Source: Eledone cirrhosa
Lineage: Eukaryota
NCBI GenBank assembly: GCA_964016885.1
Contig: CAXHJY010001291.1
Span: 1 to 22,824 of the forward strand
Direction of reading: 5' to 3'
Length of the DNA stretch: 22,824 nucleotides
The position numbers and the translations under genes were made by a program. The number at the start of each line of letters is the position of its first letter. Position 1 is the stretch's first letter. The notes beneath the pieces were generated by a model, which searched no databases, was not told where the DNA came from, and saw only the letters and a list, made by a program, of their open reading frames with translations. Shown piece by piece: positions 4,487 through 22,824 of the stretch.

Positions 4487-5270
<784 letters not shown>

Positions 5271-5274
<4 letters not shown>

Positions 5275-5440
5275 AACGAGTAGGACCCCGACGGCTGAGC
5301 TCAAGCCGTTTCGGCTGCTAATTCAGCTAGTTCAGCTCAGCCGTCGAGGTCCTACACGTTCCTATTACCACTCTACTACCCTAAGTATTGAGTACTTTGG
5401 TGCGATATGGTACATCTGGTTCCTTACCACATTTCCTTCG

Positions 5441-5441
<1 letters not shown>
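5271..5441 (+). mobile_element. Non-autonomous mini-insertion of the intact PLE family (inverted pLTR, partial pLTR, ~80-nt tail)
   Basis: Homologous to the reverse complement of 16997-17208. Ends at ...catttccttcgc(TA)n. Confidence 0.85.
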
Positions 5442-5495
<54 letters not shown>

Positions 5496-5496
<1 letters not shown>

Positions 5497-5673
5497 CGAA
5501 GGAAATGTGGTGAGCAACCAGGTGGACCATAACGCACCAAAGTACTCAATACTTAGGGTAGTAGAGTGGTAATAGGAACAAGTAAGACCCCGACGGCTGA
5601 GCTCATGCCGTTTCGACGGCTAATTATGTACTGAATAAATGGCTTGAGCTCAGCCGTCGGGGTCTTACTTGTT

Positions 5674-5677
<4 letters not shown>
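5496..5677 (-). mobile_element. Second mini-insertion of the same PLE family, opposite orientation
   Basis: acgaaggaaatgtgg...taggaacaagtaagaccccgacggctgagctc... matches 16997-17135. It is followed by a short inverted copy ending gttcc(TA)n. Confidence 0.88.
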
Positions 5678-5722
<45 letters not shown>

Positions 5723-6678: not shown

Positions 6679-6856
6679 TGTTTCTACTTTAGGCCAAGGC
6701 CAGCAATTACCCAGTGCATTACTGGTACTTTATTTTATCGACCCCGTAAGGATGAAAGGCAAAGTCAACCTCGGCAGGATTTGAACTCAGATCGTAAAGG
6801 GACGTAACTATGCTGGAAAGCATGGCGTCCGACCCTCTACCGATACTGCCAATTCC
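6679..6856 (-). mobile_element. tRNA-derived SINE (octopus-type, Deu/Nin-like central domain) with 16-bp target-site duplication (TSD)
   Basis: A box TGGCAGTATCGG, B box GTTCAAATCC, body gactttgcctttcatccttacggggtcgataaaataaagtaccag. TSD CACATACATTATTAAT at 6663-6678 and 6857-6872. Confidence 0.9.
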
Positions 6857-6884
6857 CACATACATTATTAATACTATTAATTAA

Positions 6885-7078
6885 GGGTGGTGGATTGGCA
6901 GAATCGGTAGAGAGTCGGACGCCTTGCTTTGCAGCAAAGAGTTACGGCCCTTTATGGTCTGAGTTCAAATCCTGCCGATGTTAACTTTGCCTTTCATTCT
7001 TACGGGGTCGATGAAATAAAGTACCAGTAATACACTGGGATAATTCCTGACCTTGTGCCAAGAGTAGAAACAATTATT
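6885..7078 (+). mobile_element. tRNA-derived SINE, same family
   Basis: TGGCAGAATCGG A box, GTTCAAATCC B box, same body, ends tagaaacaattatt. Confidence 0.9.
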
Positions 7079-7381
7079 CACTACGGTTACCTCGGATGGA
7101 CTCGGGGGGTAACTACAGTAAGTAAGGTAAGTAGGATACATAGCAGAATATTTAATATAGAAATGGCTTTTACATGACTAGATCTCTTTCATCTCCCGAA
7201 TGAAATACGTATTTCCATGTAGAAGCCATTTATATATATATATATATATATTCACAAGAATATCTGTTTTGTTAATATTTGGAATTTATATTAATGACTC
7301 TGGAAAATATTTTACTGTAGAGGGCTTCCAATCTATTGTAAAACTCATTATTTACTGTACTCATTGAATCTTGTGTAACTC

Positions 7382-10810: not shown

Positions 10811-11372
10811 ATATAGATATATTGTTATATATATATATACTGTTATATTTTTTTTGGGGGGGGGTCATATTGTTATAATATTAATAGAAATTAATAATAG
10901 AACACACTCACTGTTTGGTTTGTTTGGTTTTCGCTTCTGTATTTTTTATATCTCCATAGTTAATTTATTTGGCAATCTGTGTTTATCATTGATTGACCAA
11001 TGGTTATAAATTCTGATATAAATATATAGTCTATAGTCTATAAAAGTTCTTTCGTTGCACATCAGTAACATCATCAGTGGTACTTTTATGTTTCCTCCTG
11101 TTGTATTGTATGTAAATATATATATATATATATACACTATCCAGGAAAACTTGAACCGTTAAGATCTCCTTCCTGGATATGTCAATATTTATGAAACAAA
11201 CTTTGTATTTTATCTGATGAAAGCGTACCAAAATGTTGGTAATTCAACAAATATATATGTTTATAACTGATTCGAAGCACTCGACTGGTTTCTGGAGTAT
11301 ATTATCAATGGTATTAAATGAATGGAACTATATTTAGAAAACCATATTTATTCTATTATACATATTTCAAAT

Positions 11373-11490
11373 AAGTTCGCATCCCGCCGAGGTTAACTTT
11401 GCCTTTCATCCTTACGAGATCGATAAAATAAAGTACCAGTAATGTACTAGGTAATTGCTGGCATTGTGCCAAAAGTAGAAACAATTATAT
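11373..11490 (+). mobile_element. 5'-truncated copy of the tRNA-SINE
   Basis: Starts at a decayed B box; body and 3' end (tagaaacaattat) match the family. Confidence 0.85.
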
Positions 11491-11519
11491 TATATCATAT
11501 ACGTAGGAACTATTCAGCG

Positions 11520-11860: not shown

Positions 11861-12114
11861 GCCCTTATCTTTGACTGCCTTCACGATTATCAACATATTG
11901 TAAAACGTAAAGAAATATGTATTTTCCAAAACATAAACAGATGTTTCGAGTATTTACGTCTAATTAAATAAAATATTGCCTACAGAACCAAAGAAAAGAG
12001 GTGGAGTTTCTGACAGGAAGGCGAGAATTCTTACTTTGTCGAATAGAAGAAAGGAATGTTTTACACAAACAAACCTACACGCAATCACATACTTGCATTT
12101 ATATCTCTGTATGT

Positions 12115-13320
12115 ACACATGCATTTGGCGGTGTGTATGTGTACATGCATTTGGCGGTGTGTATATACACATGCATTTGACGATGTGTATGTATATATTA
12201 CATTTGACGATGTATATGTACACTGCATTTGGCGATGTATATGTACACATACATTTGGCGATGTATATGTACACATACATTTGACGATGTGTATGTATAT
12301 ATACATTGACGATGTATATATATACACATACATTTGACGATGGGTATGTATATATACATTGACGATGTATATATACACATGCATTTGACGATGTGTATGT
12401 ACACAAGCATTTGACGATGTGTATATACACATACATTTGACGATGTGTATGTACACATGCATTTTTTTCGATGTGTATGTATATATACATTTGACGATGT
12501 GTATGTATATATACATTTGACGATGTGTATGTATATATACATTTGGCGATGTGTATGTATATATACATTTGGCGATGTGTATGTATATATAGAAATGACG
12601 ATGTGTATGTACACATGCATTTAGCGTTGTGTATATACACATGCATTTGACTATGTGTATGTATACATGCATTTTTTTCGATGTGTGTGTATATATAGAA
12701 ATGACGATGTGTATGTATATATAGAAATGACGATGTGTATGTATATATAGAAATGACGATGTGTATGTATATATAGAAATGACGATGTGTATGTATATAT
12801 ATACATTTGACGATGTGTATGTATATATACATTTGGCGATGTGTATGTACACATGCATTTGGCGATGTGTATGTACACATGCATTTGGCAGTGTGTATAT
12901 ACACATGCATTTGACGATGTGTATATACACATACATTTGACGATGTATATGTACACATGCATTTGGCGATGTATATGTATATATACATGGACGATGTATA
13001 TATACACATGCATTTGACGATGTGTATGTACACATACATTTCACGATGTGTATATACACATACATTTGACGATGTGTATATACACATGCATTTGACGATG
13101 TGTATGTATATATGCATTTGACGATGTGTATGTATATATGCATTTGACGATGTGTATGTACACATGCATTTGGCGGTGTGTATATACACATGCATTTGAC
13201 GATGTGTATGTATATATGCATTTGACGATGTGTATGTATATATACATTTGACGATGTGTATGTATATATACATTTGAGGATGTGTATATACACATACATT
13301 TGGCGATGTGTATGTATATA
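12115..13320. repeat. 26-bp minisatellite, about 46 units
   Basis: Unit CATTTG(A/G)CGATGTGTATGTA(TATATA/CACATG), with clustered variants such as GAAATGACGATG. Confidence 0.95.
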
Positions 13321-13534: not shown

Positions 13535-13550
13535 TATAGGAACCAGTAAG

Positions 13551-13644
13551 ACCCCGACAGCTGAGCTCAAGCCGTTTCGACGGCTAATTCTGGACTAAAT
13601 GAAAATTTATCCTGGTATTTAAATAGCCGATCTTCTCAAGGGGT
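13551..13644 (-). ncRNA. Complete type I hammerhead ribozyme, U3-A8 variant
   Basis: ACCCC-UUGAGAA-GAuCGGCUA[loop]UAGCCGUC-GAAA-CGGCU-ugagcuc-AGCUG-UC^GGGGU. All three stems pair. Predicted cleavage between 13556 and 13555. Confidence 0.85.
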
Positions 13645-14765: not shown

Positions 14766-16919
14766 CTACCCCCCCGGGTCATTATGGGGTTTGAGGGCGA
14801 GGTAAGTCCTACGCAATCTATGTTTACATGCAGTAACCAGTTCATCTTTCTTGTTTAGGAGTTGGTCCGTCGAAAACAGCATTTGTAAAGTTTCCTCCGA
14901 GCATAAATTGCACGGACGGCGTCCTCCCGTGTAAGAATTGGCTCTGGACAGTAATCTCCAAGTGAGATCATAGGTGATGTTGTTGTCCTTGAGGTCCCAT
15001 ATGTGGCCCGAAAGTGTAGTGGCGTGACGCCGGGCCGGGTTTCGGAAGGTATGTCTATGTTGGTATAGCCGGGTCTTGAAGTCACATGCGGTAAGTCCTA
15101 TATAGGCTTTGTTGGAGGTATCCGTCCTCACGTTGCACTGGTAGATCACATTACGGTCTCTGCATCTATTGTCGAGTGGGCAAATAGATCTATCCGGGCA
15201 GTTACACCTCCTGGTCGGTTCTCCACTGCTAATTAGGTTATTTCTGCCATCGGGGTTGAGTTTTTTGTTGTTAGAGGAGACGATGTTTTGTGCGAAGTTT
15301 GGTGTAGTGCTGTAAGAGAGTTTGATGGTATTTTTGTTAATTATGTTGTGGTAGCGGTGTTGTAATGGGAAGTGTTTTTCAATGAGCCTAAAGAATAGTT
15401 TCCCGATGGGAGTAGTCACCTCTGCGTTGTGGGGAGGATTGAACCATGTTACATTGCGTGAGCGGCGGTGTCTCCTGCTGGTTCCGCTAATGGGAGCTGG
15501 ACAGTAGGATATTTCCTCCCGGAAACCACTCCGCTTGAGGGCCTGGTTGTAATAAGGCGCATGTTCATCGAATATCCGCTCATTAGCTGACAAACGGGAT
15601 ATGCGGAGGGAGATGTTTTTGACCAGGTTGTTTGTGATGTTCCTAGGATGGTTTGATCGGCGGTGGATGTAGTGCAGATTGTCATTAGGTTTCCTGTATG
15701 GGTAGTACAGGTCGTTTTCGAGGTCGAGGGTTACGTCCAGGAAGTTTACTCGGGTCAGGGACGTTTGTAGGGTTATTTTAAATCCCCAGTCGCGGAAGAA
15801 TCTGATTAATTGTTTCCGGACCCGATCTGTACTACTGGGGTTGTACCCTTTAAGGGTAAGGAGCCCATCATCACGGTACAATCCACCACCGAATGCAGGA
15901 AACATATCAGTGAGTTTGGCTATTAGGAATAATCCTATAAGATCAGTGACCTCCGCCGAATCCGTGGCGCCCATGCTGACGTCGAAGGGTGAGTCGGGAG
16001 CTCTTTTTATCCATTTAGAGTCGTCAAAGAGTAAGACTGTCTTCCTGGCGTGGAGGATGATTTTTCTTTCCTGGTCGGTGATGGGCACGAGTGTTTCGGC
16101 GAAGTCCAAGGCGGCAGTAAGTAGCGGTAAGGTGATAGAAGCATAGTAGCTCTCTATGTCGAACTGTATGAATTTAGTTTCTCGTTTATCCTCCATATTG
16201 CTGAACCAGGAGATTACTTCCTGGGTGTTGATCCATAGGCTAAGTCGGGTGTGTTGCTTGACTTTTGGTATCACGCGGTCTAGGATTATTTTGCTGATTC
16301 TCCCTATGTCGGACTTCGTTGGGTTAATAAGCCTGATGGAGGGTTTACGGTCAAAATCGGATTTATGGTCCTTCAGTGTGAAGTATGGTGTCCGTGGGTC
16401 TAGAGGTTCCGTGCGGTCGGCGACCCCGAGGCTGGAGGTGATTTGTTGTCCATCTCGATTTATGTCCTCGATACAAGAGTGGTTGGCCTTTTTATAGGTG
16501 GAGTTTAGGCTGCTCCTGATCAGTGTGTGGTATCTGTCAGGGTTGACAAAGTATAGGTTCCCAGTTTTATCCGAATGCACCATGATGTCATTTGTGTTAT
16601 CATACTCTGTTAAGTTGCTACGGAGTTTTTGTAGGAATCGGTTGTGTCTGGGTTTAAATTTAATGTTCTTGACCAGTTGGAAGAGGTCATTCTCGAAGGG
16701 TGCGAGCAAGGGGTTCAGGGGCGGAGATTTGTAGGTAATAAATCCGAATCTCTCCTTGGTGCCGAAGTCTTGGTTGTCGCAATATCTGTCATAGAAAAAA
16801 GTTCTCCATCTAAGTCTTTTCGCAAATAGATCAATTTTTTGCGTGAGCATCCGAAGGTAAAGTTTTTTCGGTGGGATTGGGATGTTCTTGGTAGAGAAGT
16901 CAATGTTGTGTTTTCGCAT
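14766..16919 (-). CDS. PLE polyprotein: reverse transcriptase plus C-terminal GIY-YIG endonuclease (717 aa)
   Basis: SDKTGN, TLKDHK...IRLINP, QFDIESYY (motif A), SMGATDS (B'), LYRDDG (C), NFLDVTL (E), YIHRRSNHP thumb, CNC-x5-CPL-x3-C linker, NVIYQC...YIGLT...FKTRLYQH, CNLCSEE...LLNK...CKH. Start context gcaccATG. Confidence 0.96.
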   Translation of the reverse strand: MRKHNIDFSTKNIPIPPKKLYLRMLTQKIDLFAKRLRWRTFFYDRYCDNQDFGTKERFGFITYKSPPLNPLLAPFENDLFQLVKNIKFKPRHNRFLQKLRSNLTEYDNTNDIMVHSDKTGNLYFVNPDRYHTLIRSSLNSTYKKANHSCIEDINRDGQQITSSLGVADRTEPLDPRTPYFTLKDHKSDFDRKPSIRLINPTKSDIGRISKIILDRVIPKVKQHTRLSLWINTQEVISWFSNMEDKRETKFIQFDIESYYASITLPLLTAALDFAETLVPITDQERKIILHARKTVLLFDDSKWIKRAPDSPFDVSMGATDSAEVTDLIGLFLIAKLTDMFPAFGGGLYRDDGLLTLKGYNPSSTDRVRKQLIRFFRDWGFKITLQTSLTRVNFLDVTLDLENDLYYPYRKPNDNLHYIHRRSNHPRNITNNLVKNISLRISRLSANERIFDEHAPYYNQALKRSGFREEISYCPAPISGTSRRHRRSRNVTWFNPPHNAEVTTPIGKLFFRLIEKHFPLQHRYHNIINKNTIKLSYSTTPNFAQNIVSSNNKKLNPDGRNNLISSGEPTRRCNCPDRSICPLDNRCRDRNVIYQCNVRTDTSNKAYIGLTACDFKTRLYQHRHTFRNPARRHATTLSGHIWDLKDNNITYDLTWRLLSRANSYTGGRRPCNLCSEETLQMLFSTDQLLNKKDELVTACKHRLRRTYLALKPHNDPGG

Positions 16920-17204
16920 GGTGCGGGTGAAAAGAATTGAGCTTAGCGGAAAAGTCTGGATGCGGCGTTATATATATATATATATATATATATATAACGA
17001 AGGAAATGTGGTAAGGAACCAGGTGGACCATAACGCACCAAAGTACTCAATACTTGGGGTAGTAGAGTGGGTAATAGGAACCAGTAAGACCCCGACGGCT
17101 GAGCTCAAGCCGTTTCGACGGCTAATTCTGGACTAAAATTATTCTTTTAGTCCAGAATTAGCCGTCGAAACGGCTTGAGCTCAGCCGTCGGGGTCTTACT
17201 GGTT

Positions 17205-17276
<72 letters not shown>

Positions 17277-18764: not shown

Positions 18765-18941
18765 GTATCAGTAGAGGGTTGGATGTCATGCTTTGAAGCA
18801 TAGAGTTACCTCCTTTTATGATCTGAGTTAAAATCCCGCCGAGGTTAACTTTGCCTTTCATCCTTACGGGTTCGATAAAGTAAAGTACCAGTAATGGCCT
18901 GGGTAATTGCTGGCCTTGTGCCAAAAGTAGAAACAATTATA
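18765..18941 (+). mobile_element. tRNA-SINE copy, A box truncated
   Basis: gtatcagtagagggttggatg...gagttaaaatcccgccgaggttaactttgcctttcatcc...tagaaacaattat. Confidence 0.87.
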
Positions 18942-19192
18942 TTTCCTTGTATTTTTTCTGTTGAAGTTATAGTTGCCTGATGAGGTCATAGCTGTTGAAT
19001 AATGGTTATCACAGAAATATATATTACAGCAAATATGAGTAAACAAAGTTAATTTTAAACTGTTGACTTACATTTGATGATATATATATATTATAGGAGA
19101 GAGATGTCGGTTTAACTCGTATTTATTTTCTACTACACATGTTCTGCCAAATGGCAGTCTCAAAACCGTACTGAATTACCTACAATTATGTT

Positions 19193-19380
19193 GCAGTGGT
19201 TTGGCAGTATCGGTAGAGGGTCGGACGCCATGCTTTCCATCATAGTTACGTCCCTTTACGATCTGAGTTCAAATCCCGCCGAGGTTGACTTTGCCTTTCA
19301 TCCTTACGGGGTCGATAAAATAAAGTACCAGTAATGCACTGGGTCCTTGCTGGCCTTGTGCCTAAAGTATAAACAATTAT
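19193..19380 (+). mobile_element. tRNA-SINE copy with 11-bp TSD
   Basis: Intact A and B boxes. ACAATTATGTT at 19182-19192 and 19373-19383. Confidence 0.9.
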
Positions 19381-19561
19381 GTTATAGTATCTTTTGATTA
19401 TTTAGGTCAGTGTCTCTTCAGACACTAGAATAATCTCCCTTTTATACGCTACAGAAGAGACGAGTAACAAAGAATTTAAATACTAACTGGAAAAAATATG
19501 CATTTTACCAAGCCTACATAAGAGAACAGGAGATTTGAAATATATGGCGGACCTTAGCAAC

Positions 19562-19605
<44 letters not shown>

Positions 19606-20329
19606 GCATCTTCTTTCATATATATATATATATATTAAAAAAAAACCAAAGAACAACATAAAAAAGCGAGATGTCCTACACGGGTGAAAATATAAGAAAA
19701 AGAAAATAGAAAATAGAACTGAGATAGTTTGTCTCAAACCACAAACAAATCTCAATTTTAAAGCATAAGAACTGTGAAACCGGCAAAGTACATATAATAA
19801 AGAGAGATAAACTCAGATATATACATATATGTGTTCAAATCGTAAGGGACCAGATTCGCTAGGGTGAATAAGATACTAAATATGAAAAATACGGTTGGCC
19901 CGACTCAATTAAAAGAATAAATTAAGAAAAATTATTAACCAATCGTGATAACTATCAAATAAACACCCAGACAGTCTTTGGTAAAACTGTTTCAGATCAA
20001 GTGAAAGGAATTACCAATTCTATTGCTCTTCAGTGAATGTAAAAATTAGTAGACCCTTCACTTGTAGGTTTCTTAGAAGACTAAATGAAGCGCGTGTTTA
20101 GAATAACGCTCATGATATTCATTATGAATTGAACACATATATGTCTATATCTGTGTTTATCTCTCTTTATTATATTGAATTATACTACACGGCTCGGAAC
20201 ATTTTTCCTTGAGCTCTTTAATTGTAATAGACTATTCTGAGTTTCTAACTCAATATATACTTTTGATATATATCCATTTCTTCTTTTTATATATGATGAC
20301 AAAATTATGTAAATTTTAACGTTAAACTT

Positions 20330-21880: not shown

Positions 21881-21984
21881 ATACATATATACATATATAT
21901 GCATAAACACATACATAAATTACATATTCAATTGCCCCCAAACATGTGTGACATAAAAAAACAAATTAATAAAAAAGAAAGCAT

Positions 21985-22824
21985 GTATATATATATATAT
22001 AAGATGTATATAAATTAGATGTGTATATTTAAGATGTATATATATAAGGTGTATATATATTAGATGTATATATTTAAGATGTATATATATAAGGTGTATA
22101 TATATTAGATGTATATATATAATATGTATATATATCAGATGTATATATATGAGATGTATATACATTAGATGTATATATATTAGATGTATATATATAAGAT
22201 GTATATATATATAAGATGTATATATATAAGAAGTATATATATAAGATGTATTATATAAGATGTATATATATTAGATGTAAATATAAGATGTATATACATA
22301 AGAAGTATATATATAAGAAGTATATATATATAAGAAGTATATATATATAAGAAGTATATATATAAGATGTATATATAAGATGTATATATATAAGATGTAT
22401 ATATATAAGAAGTATATATATATATAGAAGTATATATATAAAAGATGTATATATATATAAGATGTATATATACATGTATGATATGTATATATATAAGATG
22501 TATATATATACATATCATACATGTATATATACATCTTATATATATATACATCTTTTATATATATACTTCTTATATATATATACTTCTTATATATATACAT
22601 CTTATATATATACATCTTATATATACATCTTATATATATACTTCTTATATATATATACTTCTTATATATATATACTTCTTATATATATACTTCTTATGTA
22701 TATACATCTTATATTTACATCTAATATATATACATCTTATATATACATCTTATATATATACTTCTTATATATATACATCTTATATATATATACATCTTAT
22801 ATATATACATCTAATATATATAAT
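21985..22824. repeat. 13-17-bp TA-derived minisatellite (TATATATAAGATG/AAGAAG) with orientation switch near 22498
   Basis: AGATG/AGAAG units up to about 22500, CATCT/CTTCT units afterwards. Confidence 0.93.

Follow-up and report, generated by a model that had tools for sequence, protein, structure and literature searches.

A half-hammerhead hairpin beside a Penelope-like element of Eledone cirrhosa points to an RNA start inside the ribozyme and, tentatively, to a split-ribozyme route to long copies

We analysed a stretch of 22,824 nucleotides from Eledone cirrhosa (contig CAXHJY010001291.1 of assembly GCA_964016885.1, forward strand; below, the window). It contains a Penelope-like element (PLE) with a complete hammerhead ribozyme in its 3' repeat and, beside its open reading frame (ORF), a hairpin made of two half hammerheads. 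Signed positions take the hammerhead cut site as their origin and follow the element's sense strand (the window's minus strand); the G that follows GUC is +1 and corresponds to window position 17093 in the 5' copy and 13555 in the 3' copy. The element comprises the following features.

13539..13555, minus strand: short tail of the 3' repeat (+1 to +17), ending at a (TA)n target.
13551..13644, minus strand: complete type I hammerhead of the 3' repeat, with a U3-A8 core variant, a long loop II and the cut at 13556/13555.
14766..16919, minus strand: ORF of 717 amino acids, probable reverse transcriptase (YRDD) with a putative C-terminal GIY-YIG-like domain; motifs RWR, DKT, CxCx5C, CxxC and CxH.
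16969..16996, no strand: (TA)14 in place of bases +98 to +141 of the untranslated region (UTR), probably the target microsatellite between two insertions.
16997..17138, minus strand: direct (long-tail) arm, -44 to +97, i.e. the substrate half of the hammerhead plus a 97-base tail.
17093..17094, minus strand: hammerhead cut site of the 5' half, GUC/G, with a family-wide pile-up of ends at +1.
17097..17113, minus strand: helix III hairpin, a near-perfect 16-base palindrome and, by cofolding, the predicted pairing site between two hammerheads.
17134, minus strand: A at -41, the putative main capped start inside loop II (equivalents: 13596 in the 3' copy, 17149 in the inverted arm).
17139-17144: 6-base loop between the arms; the direct arm reaches 17137-17138, the inverted arm starts at 17145-17146.
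17145..17207, plus strand: inverted (short-tail) arm, -44 to +17, the same half hammerhead, ending in TA.
17207..17272, no strand: (TA)33 target tract beyond the inverted arm.

The element shows the hallmarks of PLEs, namely partial tandems (pseudo long terminal repeats, pLTRs), an inverted truncated copy, a tail and a hammerhead in the repeat. Comparison with the published description revealed the motifs of the Hydra type in the ORF: RWR at residue 37 (of the RWK type), DKT at 117, the CxCx5C linker at 572, CxxC at 670 and CxH at 698. The Pfam profile RVT_1 matched weakly (E 0.039) and the GIY-YIG profile did not match; a VIY...YIG motif was recognised by eye. These motifs, the (TA)n target and the anatomy of partial tandems, inverted 5'-truncated copy and tail are those reported for the Hydra clade (Craig et al. 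2021, PMC8557442), and by motif description the element appears to match this clade. The natural unit, taken from a head-to-tail array, is 3544 bases (3.54 kb), whereas units of the Hydra clade are generally below 3 kb; moreover, the 5' truncation in that clade is described, in the accessible part of the paper, without a fixed stop.

The genome (3.0 Gb) was examined by pattern searches. Genome-wide totals are exact matches and hence lower bounds for the family size; counts on 100 listed matches were made by hand on the matches listed, which lie mostly on contigs C1 and C2. A 30-base tail probe gave 19,949 matches, a probe of the catalytic strand 4,844, the tail continuing into the real UTR 379, and an ORF-proximal probe 14. 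In the usual insertion, (TA)n flanks a pair of arms on both sides, an inverted one that ends at +17 and, after it, a direct one that ends at +97; real UTR continues behind the tail in 2 of 99 tail-anchored loci. Roughly 20,000 such short two-armed insertions are present in (TA)n genome-wide. Their layout matches two internal starts combined with extension of both target strands, as seen in vitro for the Poseidon element of Anolis (Frangieh et al. 2024, PMC11167929). There, too, both target strands are cut and extended, the two internal starts define the tail, the target is AT-rich and uncut RNA is the main template; the tail lies here in the 5' UTR (+17 to +97), but in the ORF of Poseidon. The initial annotation, made from the window alone, had invoked a circle in order to explain why UTR sequence follows the end of the pLTR. 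This sequence is the known PLE tail, which internal initiation can account for with or without a circle (PMC11167929).

In the window, each hairpin arm retains the 3' strands of helices I and II as well as GAAA, helix III and GUC, whereas the catalytic strand ACCCC-UUGAGAA (13644-13633) is present solely in the 3' copy. The earlier observation that both 5' repeats begin in loop II and lack this strand was thus confirmed, both arms reaching -44, and the cut positions 17094/17093 as well as the 3538-base distance between the two cut sites are correct. The hairpin is, however, probably a separate insertion and not the neighbouring ORF copy's own repeat, contrary to the assumption that the two repeats belong to one element. 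This is indicated by two allelic differences (position -4 is C in both arms but T in the 3' hammerhead, and base +37 of the hairpin departs from the matching subfamily) and from the replacement of the 44-base UTR segment +98 to +141 by (TA)14. The real segment is found in full context in 11 of the 13 other ORF-proximal matches; the remaining two are an inverted junction and a repeat of the same locus. Since two repeats copied from one RNA should agree, the disagreement between the arms and the 3' hammerhead suggests that the predicted 3538-nucleotide monomer is a composite; its length stands as a distance but not as the natural unit of 3544 bases. Read contigs, which may stem from the source sample, show a drop in depth past -45, leave (TA)14 unbridged and include a few loose ends at 17134 that begin with an extra base. 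Two further cassettes of the family face each other across (TA)n at 5270-5445 and 5494-5680; one of their direct arms starts at -45, the other near -12.

The end of the arms inside loop II is a property of the whole family. It was surveyed in 99 of the first 100 listed matches of the tail probe, all on contig C1. Among the long-tail arms that reach -33, 54 of 62 stop within -33 to -46; for the short-tail arms, which were found beside 68 of the 99 loci, the corresponding value is 49 of 51. Stop rates per base are 0.062-0.069 in this zone and 0.006-0.011 between +20 and -32. As short- and long-tail arms differ by 80 bases in length, the stop tracks the template position, and 34 distinct junctions among the 41 loci with both arms in the zone indicate independent insertion events. 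Four of the eight long-tail arms that pass the zone were scored at -113/-118 solely because older subfamilies diverge there. By eye, the same edge is seen in a subfamily with a different loop II hairpin. The initial annotation had held that randomly distributed truncation points would speak against its proposal; the stops are strongly non-random.

Further upstream no comparable edge was found. A list of 2,068 matches supplied 90 long arms from its first 100 entries; three inner tandem units and the seven final entries were left out. On the upstream side of -59 the rate of stops declines smoothly, from 0.002 per base to 0.0005, and no second fixed end occurs within 700 bases. A second start upstream of the whole ribozyme had been considered, as 6 of 30 ends of a first set lay at -102 to -121; it was not confirmed in the 90 arms. 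Splicing at the AG of -41/-40 was ruled out, because arms contain bases upstream of this AG, and so was fold-back copying of a single cDNA, because each arm can hold sequence absent from the other. Family-wide, runs of up to about 15 T are found at the -44 end, which suggest an added or slipped A on the cDNA.

Whether the zone marks an RNA end or an obstacle can be read from copies that extend into the real UTR. Among the 379 matches, 62 loci were inspected, four of which were dropped as repeats of one locus, leaving 58. In 17 of these, a downstream position (+161 to +918) is joined back to the repeat; the donors of the joins lie at -37 to -44 in 13 cases and at +1/-1 in 4, and nowhere else. 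Seven of these jump copies reach -33 on their second pass, and all seven stop again in the zone. In contrast, all 25 continuous copies, whose sequence extends to the limit of the stretch retrieved, pass it (Fisher p 3e-7), as do five further copies of uncertain class. Note that for half of the 58 loci only 520 bases downstream were available, so that "continuous" is there no proof of unit length. A pause would hit both classes of copies, an end only one; the edge of the zone thus behaves like an RNA end. An obstacle would be a weak loop II hairpin or a protein bound there, at which the reverse transcriptase pauses; alternatively, an uncapped nuclease cut could lie there, in either case without any transcription start. 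A weak AU-rich hairpin is indeed predicted with its 3' strand at -37 to -45, the ends spread over about 12 bases, and many lie at -44 without an extra G. Continuous templates, however, are copied through the same bases unstopped (25/25), the stronger helices I-III barely halt the enzyme, and the extra G described below is specific to A-41. A nuclease cut at -46/-45 should leave a matching pile of 3' ends, which is lacking (2 loci among the 66 rows listed). We regard this alternative as very improbable.

The position of the RNA end is indicated by additional bases at the junctions. Where a purine directly precedes A-41, the first 100 listed of 2,188 matches have G in 81 cases and A in 19, although many of these G may derive from the partner arm. 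For arms joined to (TA)n via G, this G directly precedes A-41 in 59 of 100 listed of 196 matches; it precedes -40 in nine, and -42, -43, -44 and -45 in three, none, one and two, respectively. The same test with C gave 13 of 44 genome-wide before A-41, even though among 48 distinct whole hammerheads (the sample of our core survey) the natural base at -42 is C in 8 and G in 1. In these copies the motif TYAGTC around -41 is 88-100% conserved within an otherwise more variable loop; we take it to resemble an invertebrate initiator. By eye, no downstream promoter element was seen. Enzymes of the MMLV (Moloney murine leukemia virus) kind add a first C templated by the cap, while 5'-OH ends receive mainly one extra base (PMC6885630), and an extra G from capping has been reported at a junction made by L1 (PMC11702581); by analogy, we infer that PLE enzymes add a cap-templated base in the same way. 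Taken together, it is very probable that a capped RNA starts inside loop II, at A-41. At its 5' end, a primary transcript starting there would carry solely the substrate half. A second start near -45 is likely, as some arms extend to -44/-45 in templated sequence.

The half-repeat in the DNA accordingly has a simple interpretation at the level of copying: it appears to be a by-product of the reverse transcriptase running off the end of the RNA. Two proposals of the initial annotation do not hold for the DNA. The 5' pLTRs were said to keep only half of the hammerhead; all 25 copies that run into the ORF and reach -33 pass -46. The half-repeat was also taken as one part of a possible split ribozyme; the cassettes, however, mostly have no ORF behind them, as the 2 of 99 loci entering real UTR illustrate. 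On the other hand, long copies require a template that is continuous through -41, since all of the 25 keep the whole hammerhead and never stop there.

What remains is the interplay of two hammerheads in one RNA, which we approached by fold prediction. Cofolding of the whole 3' hammerhead with the 5' half gave -57.4 kcal/mol, compared with -40.9 kcal/mol for the separate molecules, i.e. a gain of 16.5; after self-cutting of the 3' copy the values were -48.4 and -34.0 kcal/mol. With shuffled partners the gain was 6.8 +/- 3.2. In the model, helix II stays within the 3' copy, the two palindromic helix III strands pair with each other, ACCCC of the 3' copy pairs with GGGGU of the half, and C17 of the half is placed at the core. 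This corresponds to the known double-hammerhead geometry, and by this prediction the 3' hammerhead completes a core at the 5' half's site. The earlier idea that the missing strand pairs with the 5' half thus survives with regard to the core but not with regard to an exchange of helix II, this exchange reaching only -31.0 kcal/mol as a bare structure compared with -57.4 kcal/mol via helix III. A transcript running through the inverted arm would, by the same kind of prediction, bury the half in a hairpin; a start at -41 excludes the inverted arm, so that the half would not be buried. Helix III is strong enough for a fold of the monomer.

Does the hammerhead cut in vivo? In the core survey, helix I pairs are kept in 45-48 of 48 copies, six pairs of helix II in 46-48 and four pairs of helix III in 47-48; two-sided changes are almost absent, which signals conservation rather than covariation. 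The 3-8 core pair is U3-A8 in the window and in 37 of 48 copies, a known variant (PMC4209133, PMC3088659), and a C3-A8 mismatch in nine. The hammerhead family was absent among the 150 listed of 212 Rfam matches, which contained solely chance microRNA-like hairpins. Arms lacking the T at -2 gave 539 matches, and 74 of 100 listed were true stops at +1/-1; the other 26 comprised 25 point changes or extra G and one deletion. This amounts to about 400 of 15,079 arms (about 2.7%) ending at the cut site. Control positions gave about 36 ends at -3/-4 (about 33 of 100 listed of 110 matches) and about 33 at +2 (about 23 of 100 listed of 143 matches). As microhomology may inflate the simple peak, we also counted insertions in which both arms end at +1 around one extra base; one added base at this position is what MMLV enzymes would, by analogy, be expected to leave at a 5'-OH end. 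This class makes up 17 of 100 listed, or 0.6% of arms. In two subfamilies rich in C3-A8 cores (2 of 2 and 6 of 9 sampled; 71 of 100 listed for a linked loop sequence) it was found in 1 of 100 listed of 171 (2,847 arms; 0.06%) and in 3 of 100 listed of 599 (18,656 arms; 0.10%), hence 6-10 times more rarely, the control being imperfect owing to the greater age of these subfamilies and, in one of them, a weakened helix III. Cutting thus probably takes place in vivo. Whole subfamilies were amplified with the C3-A8 mismatch, one of them also with a broken helix III palindrome.

These observations can be combined as follows. A capped RNA would start inside loop II, with the substrate half at its 5' end, and reverse transcriptase running off this end would generate the short two-armed cassettes that stop at about -41 to -45. 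In a minority of full-length RNAs, the 3' hammerhead would cut both its own site and that of the 5' half; the doubly cut RNA would then close into a circle of 3.54 kb, which would serve as the template for long copies and rebuild complete ones. We put the probability that a split ribozyme and a circle are the main route to long copies at roughly 0.45. A circle made by cutting at both sites would lead to seamless units, whole upstream ribozymes and joint passing of the zone by both arms. In one array of 2.4 units, each of the three segments carries private changes (3, 2 and 3), as expected of one long insertion. An array of 3.5 units on contig C2 was rejected as evidence for rolling-circle copying, because two of its units share private changes with the partial unit and all three are identical. 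The split ribozyme of the initial annotation, which fails for the DNA of this locus, therefore stays the leading, if unproven, model at the RNA level. More speculatively, the split may act as a check for full length: solely transcripts reaching the 3' repeat would supply the catalytic strand, dock via the palindromic helix III, remove the cap fragment and close the 3.54-kb circle, regenerating pLTR and promoter; we offer this only tentatively.

Long copies could also arise from the same capped start without any cutting, if the enzyme moved from the 5' end to the 3' repeat by homology, similar to retroviral strong-stop transfer. Pairing of the two ends via the palindromic helix III would assist, and short or truncated RNAs, in which the 3' repeat is missing, would yield the run-off cassettes. 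The enzyme does jump from the -41 end in 13 of the 58 loci, the cofold supports end-to-end pairing, subfamilies with C3-A8 cores spread with long copies, and cleavage-dead hammerheads had no effect on insertion of the Anolis element in vitro (PMC11167929). Such a transfer, however, would have to succeed at nearly 100% of arrivals (25/25 second passes), the two arms of a long insertion mostly pass jointly, a mismatch subfamily with a broken palindrome still made long copies, and neither the +1 ends nor the conserved core are explained by transfer itself. We consider it unlikely as the main route. Even less likely, in our view, is an origin of long copies from read-through RNAs that start at host or upstream promoters, carry two whole hammerheads and are either cut and closed into circles, in line with the 2014 proposal, or directly copied; the -41 RNA would then serve just as mRNA and as template of dead-end cassettes. 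Unit-length copies do keep a whole hammerhead upstream in the DNA (25/25), tandem arrays exist, the strength of helix III would suit the monomer fold, and the +1 ends are accounted for equally well. Yet a second fixed end is absent upstream in the 90 long arms, -41 starts within tandems should produce numerous unit-length copies with an end at -41, of which none was seen, and read-through would have to supply the approximately 4-13% of arms that pass.

Several points weigh against the route via split ribozyme and circle. Start site, cutting and circle are all read from scars in DNA. The share of arms ending at the cut is only about 2.7% (about 1% in the mismatch subfamilies), the +1 peak may in part reflect microhomology in the G run or in the CG palindrome, and 1 of 100 shuffles reached the real cofold gain. 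The C3-A8 subfamilies made hundreds of long copies (71 of 100 listed of 367 matches), among them copies with real UTR and a whole hammerhead (loci L209, L213 and L255); efficient cutting may thus be unnecessary. We take a C3-A8 core to be inactive; our literature search gave no report on the activity of such a core. Three of the other arrays that we examined likewise resemble later DNA duplication, which explains most arrays of 2-4 units better. Few joins onto a -1 3' end occur (1 of 5 matches), and linkage of subfamily alleles (37 copies) neither located a crossover at the cut site nor favoured one of the routes. Finally, hammerhead mutants of the Anolis element left insertion in vitro unaffected, and Anolis RNA-seq reads neither began nor ended at the cut (PMC11167929).

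Much of this anatomy is already in print: pLTR hammerheads, the dimer fold, the proposal of a circle, the tail and inverted truncated copies. In 2014, Cervera and de la Pena proposed a circular PLE intermediate from ligated cut RNA (PMC4209133), and the present hammerhead shares with theirs the type I fold, the U3-A8 variant, the palindromic helix III region and the dimer model; their circle likewise allows more-than-unit copying. Their precursor, however, has two whole ribozymes, and in vivo evidence is stated to be absent; in the present element, the 5' ribozyme apparently contains the RNA start, helix III is long, and the cut is marked by ends in the genome. For Poseidon, there are no reads at the cut site and, in the accessible part of the report, the RNA 5' end is not placed inside the ribozyme (PMC11167929). 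Penelope of Drosophila virilis also starts inside its pLTR from an internal promoter, and the regeneration of its repeats was called unexplained (Schostak et al. 2008, PMC2377424); its start, however, lies upstream of an intron that ends at the start of helix I, so that the whole ribozyme is transcribed (PMC4209133). Metazoan retrozymes without long terminal repeats share the type I hammerhead and, in their RNAs, double cutting (Cervera and de la Pena 2020, PMC7229834); ligation of retrozyme RNAs to circles by RtcB has been shown and a PLE origin proposed (PMC7229834; Li et al. 2026, 10.64898/2026.07.22.740005). Retrozymes are non-coding tandems of 170-400 bases with a whole ribozyme in each unit (PMC7229834), whereas the present unit is coding and 3.5 kb long, and its short cassettes lack the catalytic strand, unlike retrozyme units.

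In the accessible literature we did not find an RNA whose capped start lies inside the ribozyme, scars of run-off at cap or cut, or two classes of templates. How PLEs rebuild their upstream repeat and what the hammerhead does are open questions (PMC2377424, PMC8557442, PMC11167929). The approximately 20,000 scars map a likely capped start and a likely cut end, each at one base, and two kinds of template; they offer evidence of an indirect kind for cutting in vivo, with the mismatched cores as a natural control. In addition, the jumps show how mini-tandems of half ribozymes can arise. Three such tandems from the 5' part of the RNA, without catalytic strand, were seen at L187/L221, L227 and L271, with units of 257, 226 and 47 bases; they are possibly a birth stage of retrozyme-like repeats. 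At L229/L230 (G000:C1:91472001-91492000) lies an array of 4.5 units with mosaic differences between them; in front of it, a 55-base segment of the ORF is repeated more than 50 times.

Elsewhere in the window, the minus strand carries at 1207-2096 the broken 3' part of another PLE (Pfam GIY-YIG, E 1.6e-4), beside which repeated segments and (CA)n are found around 640-860 and 2090-2560. A short repeat unrelated to PLEs occurs in four copies (6700-7080, 11352-11491, 18804-18943 and 19200-19383), the first of which forms an imperfect hairpin at 6781-6968. A short inverted repeat at 19543-19612 surrounds a (TA)n tract, and minisatellites with periods of about 26 and about 15 bases occupy 11960-13320 and 21900-22740, respectively.
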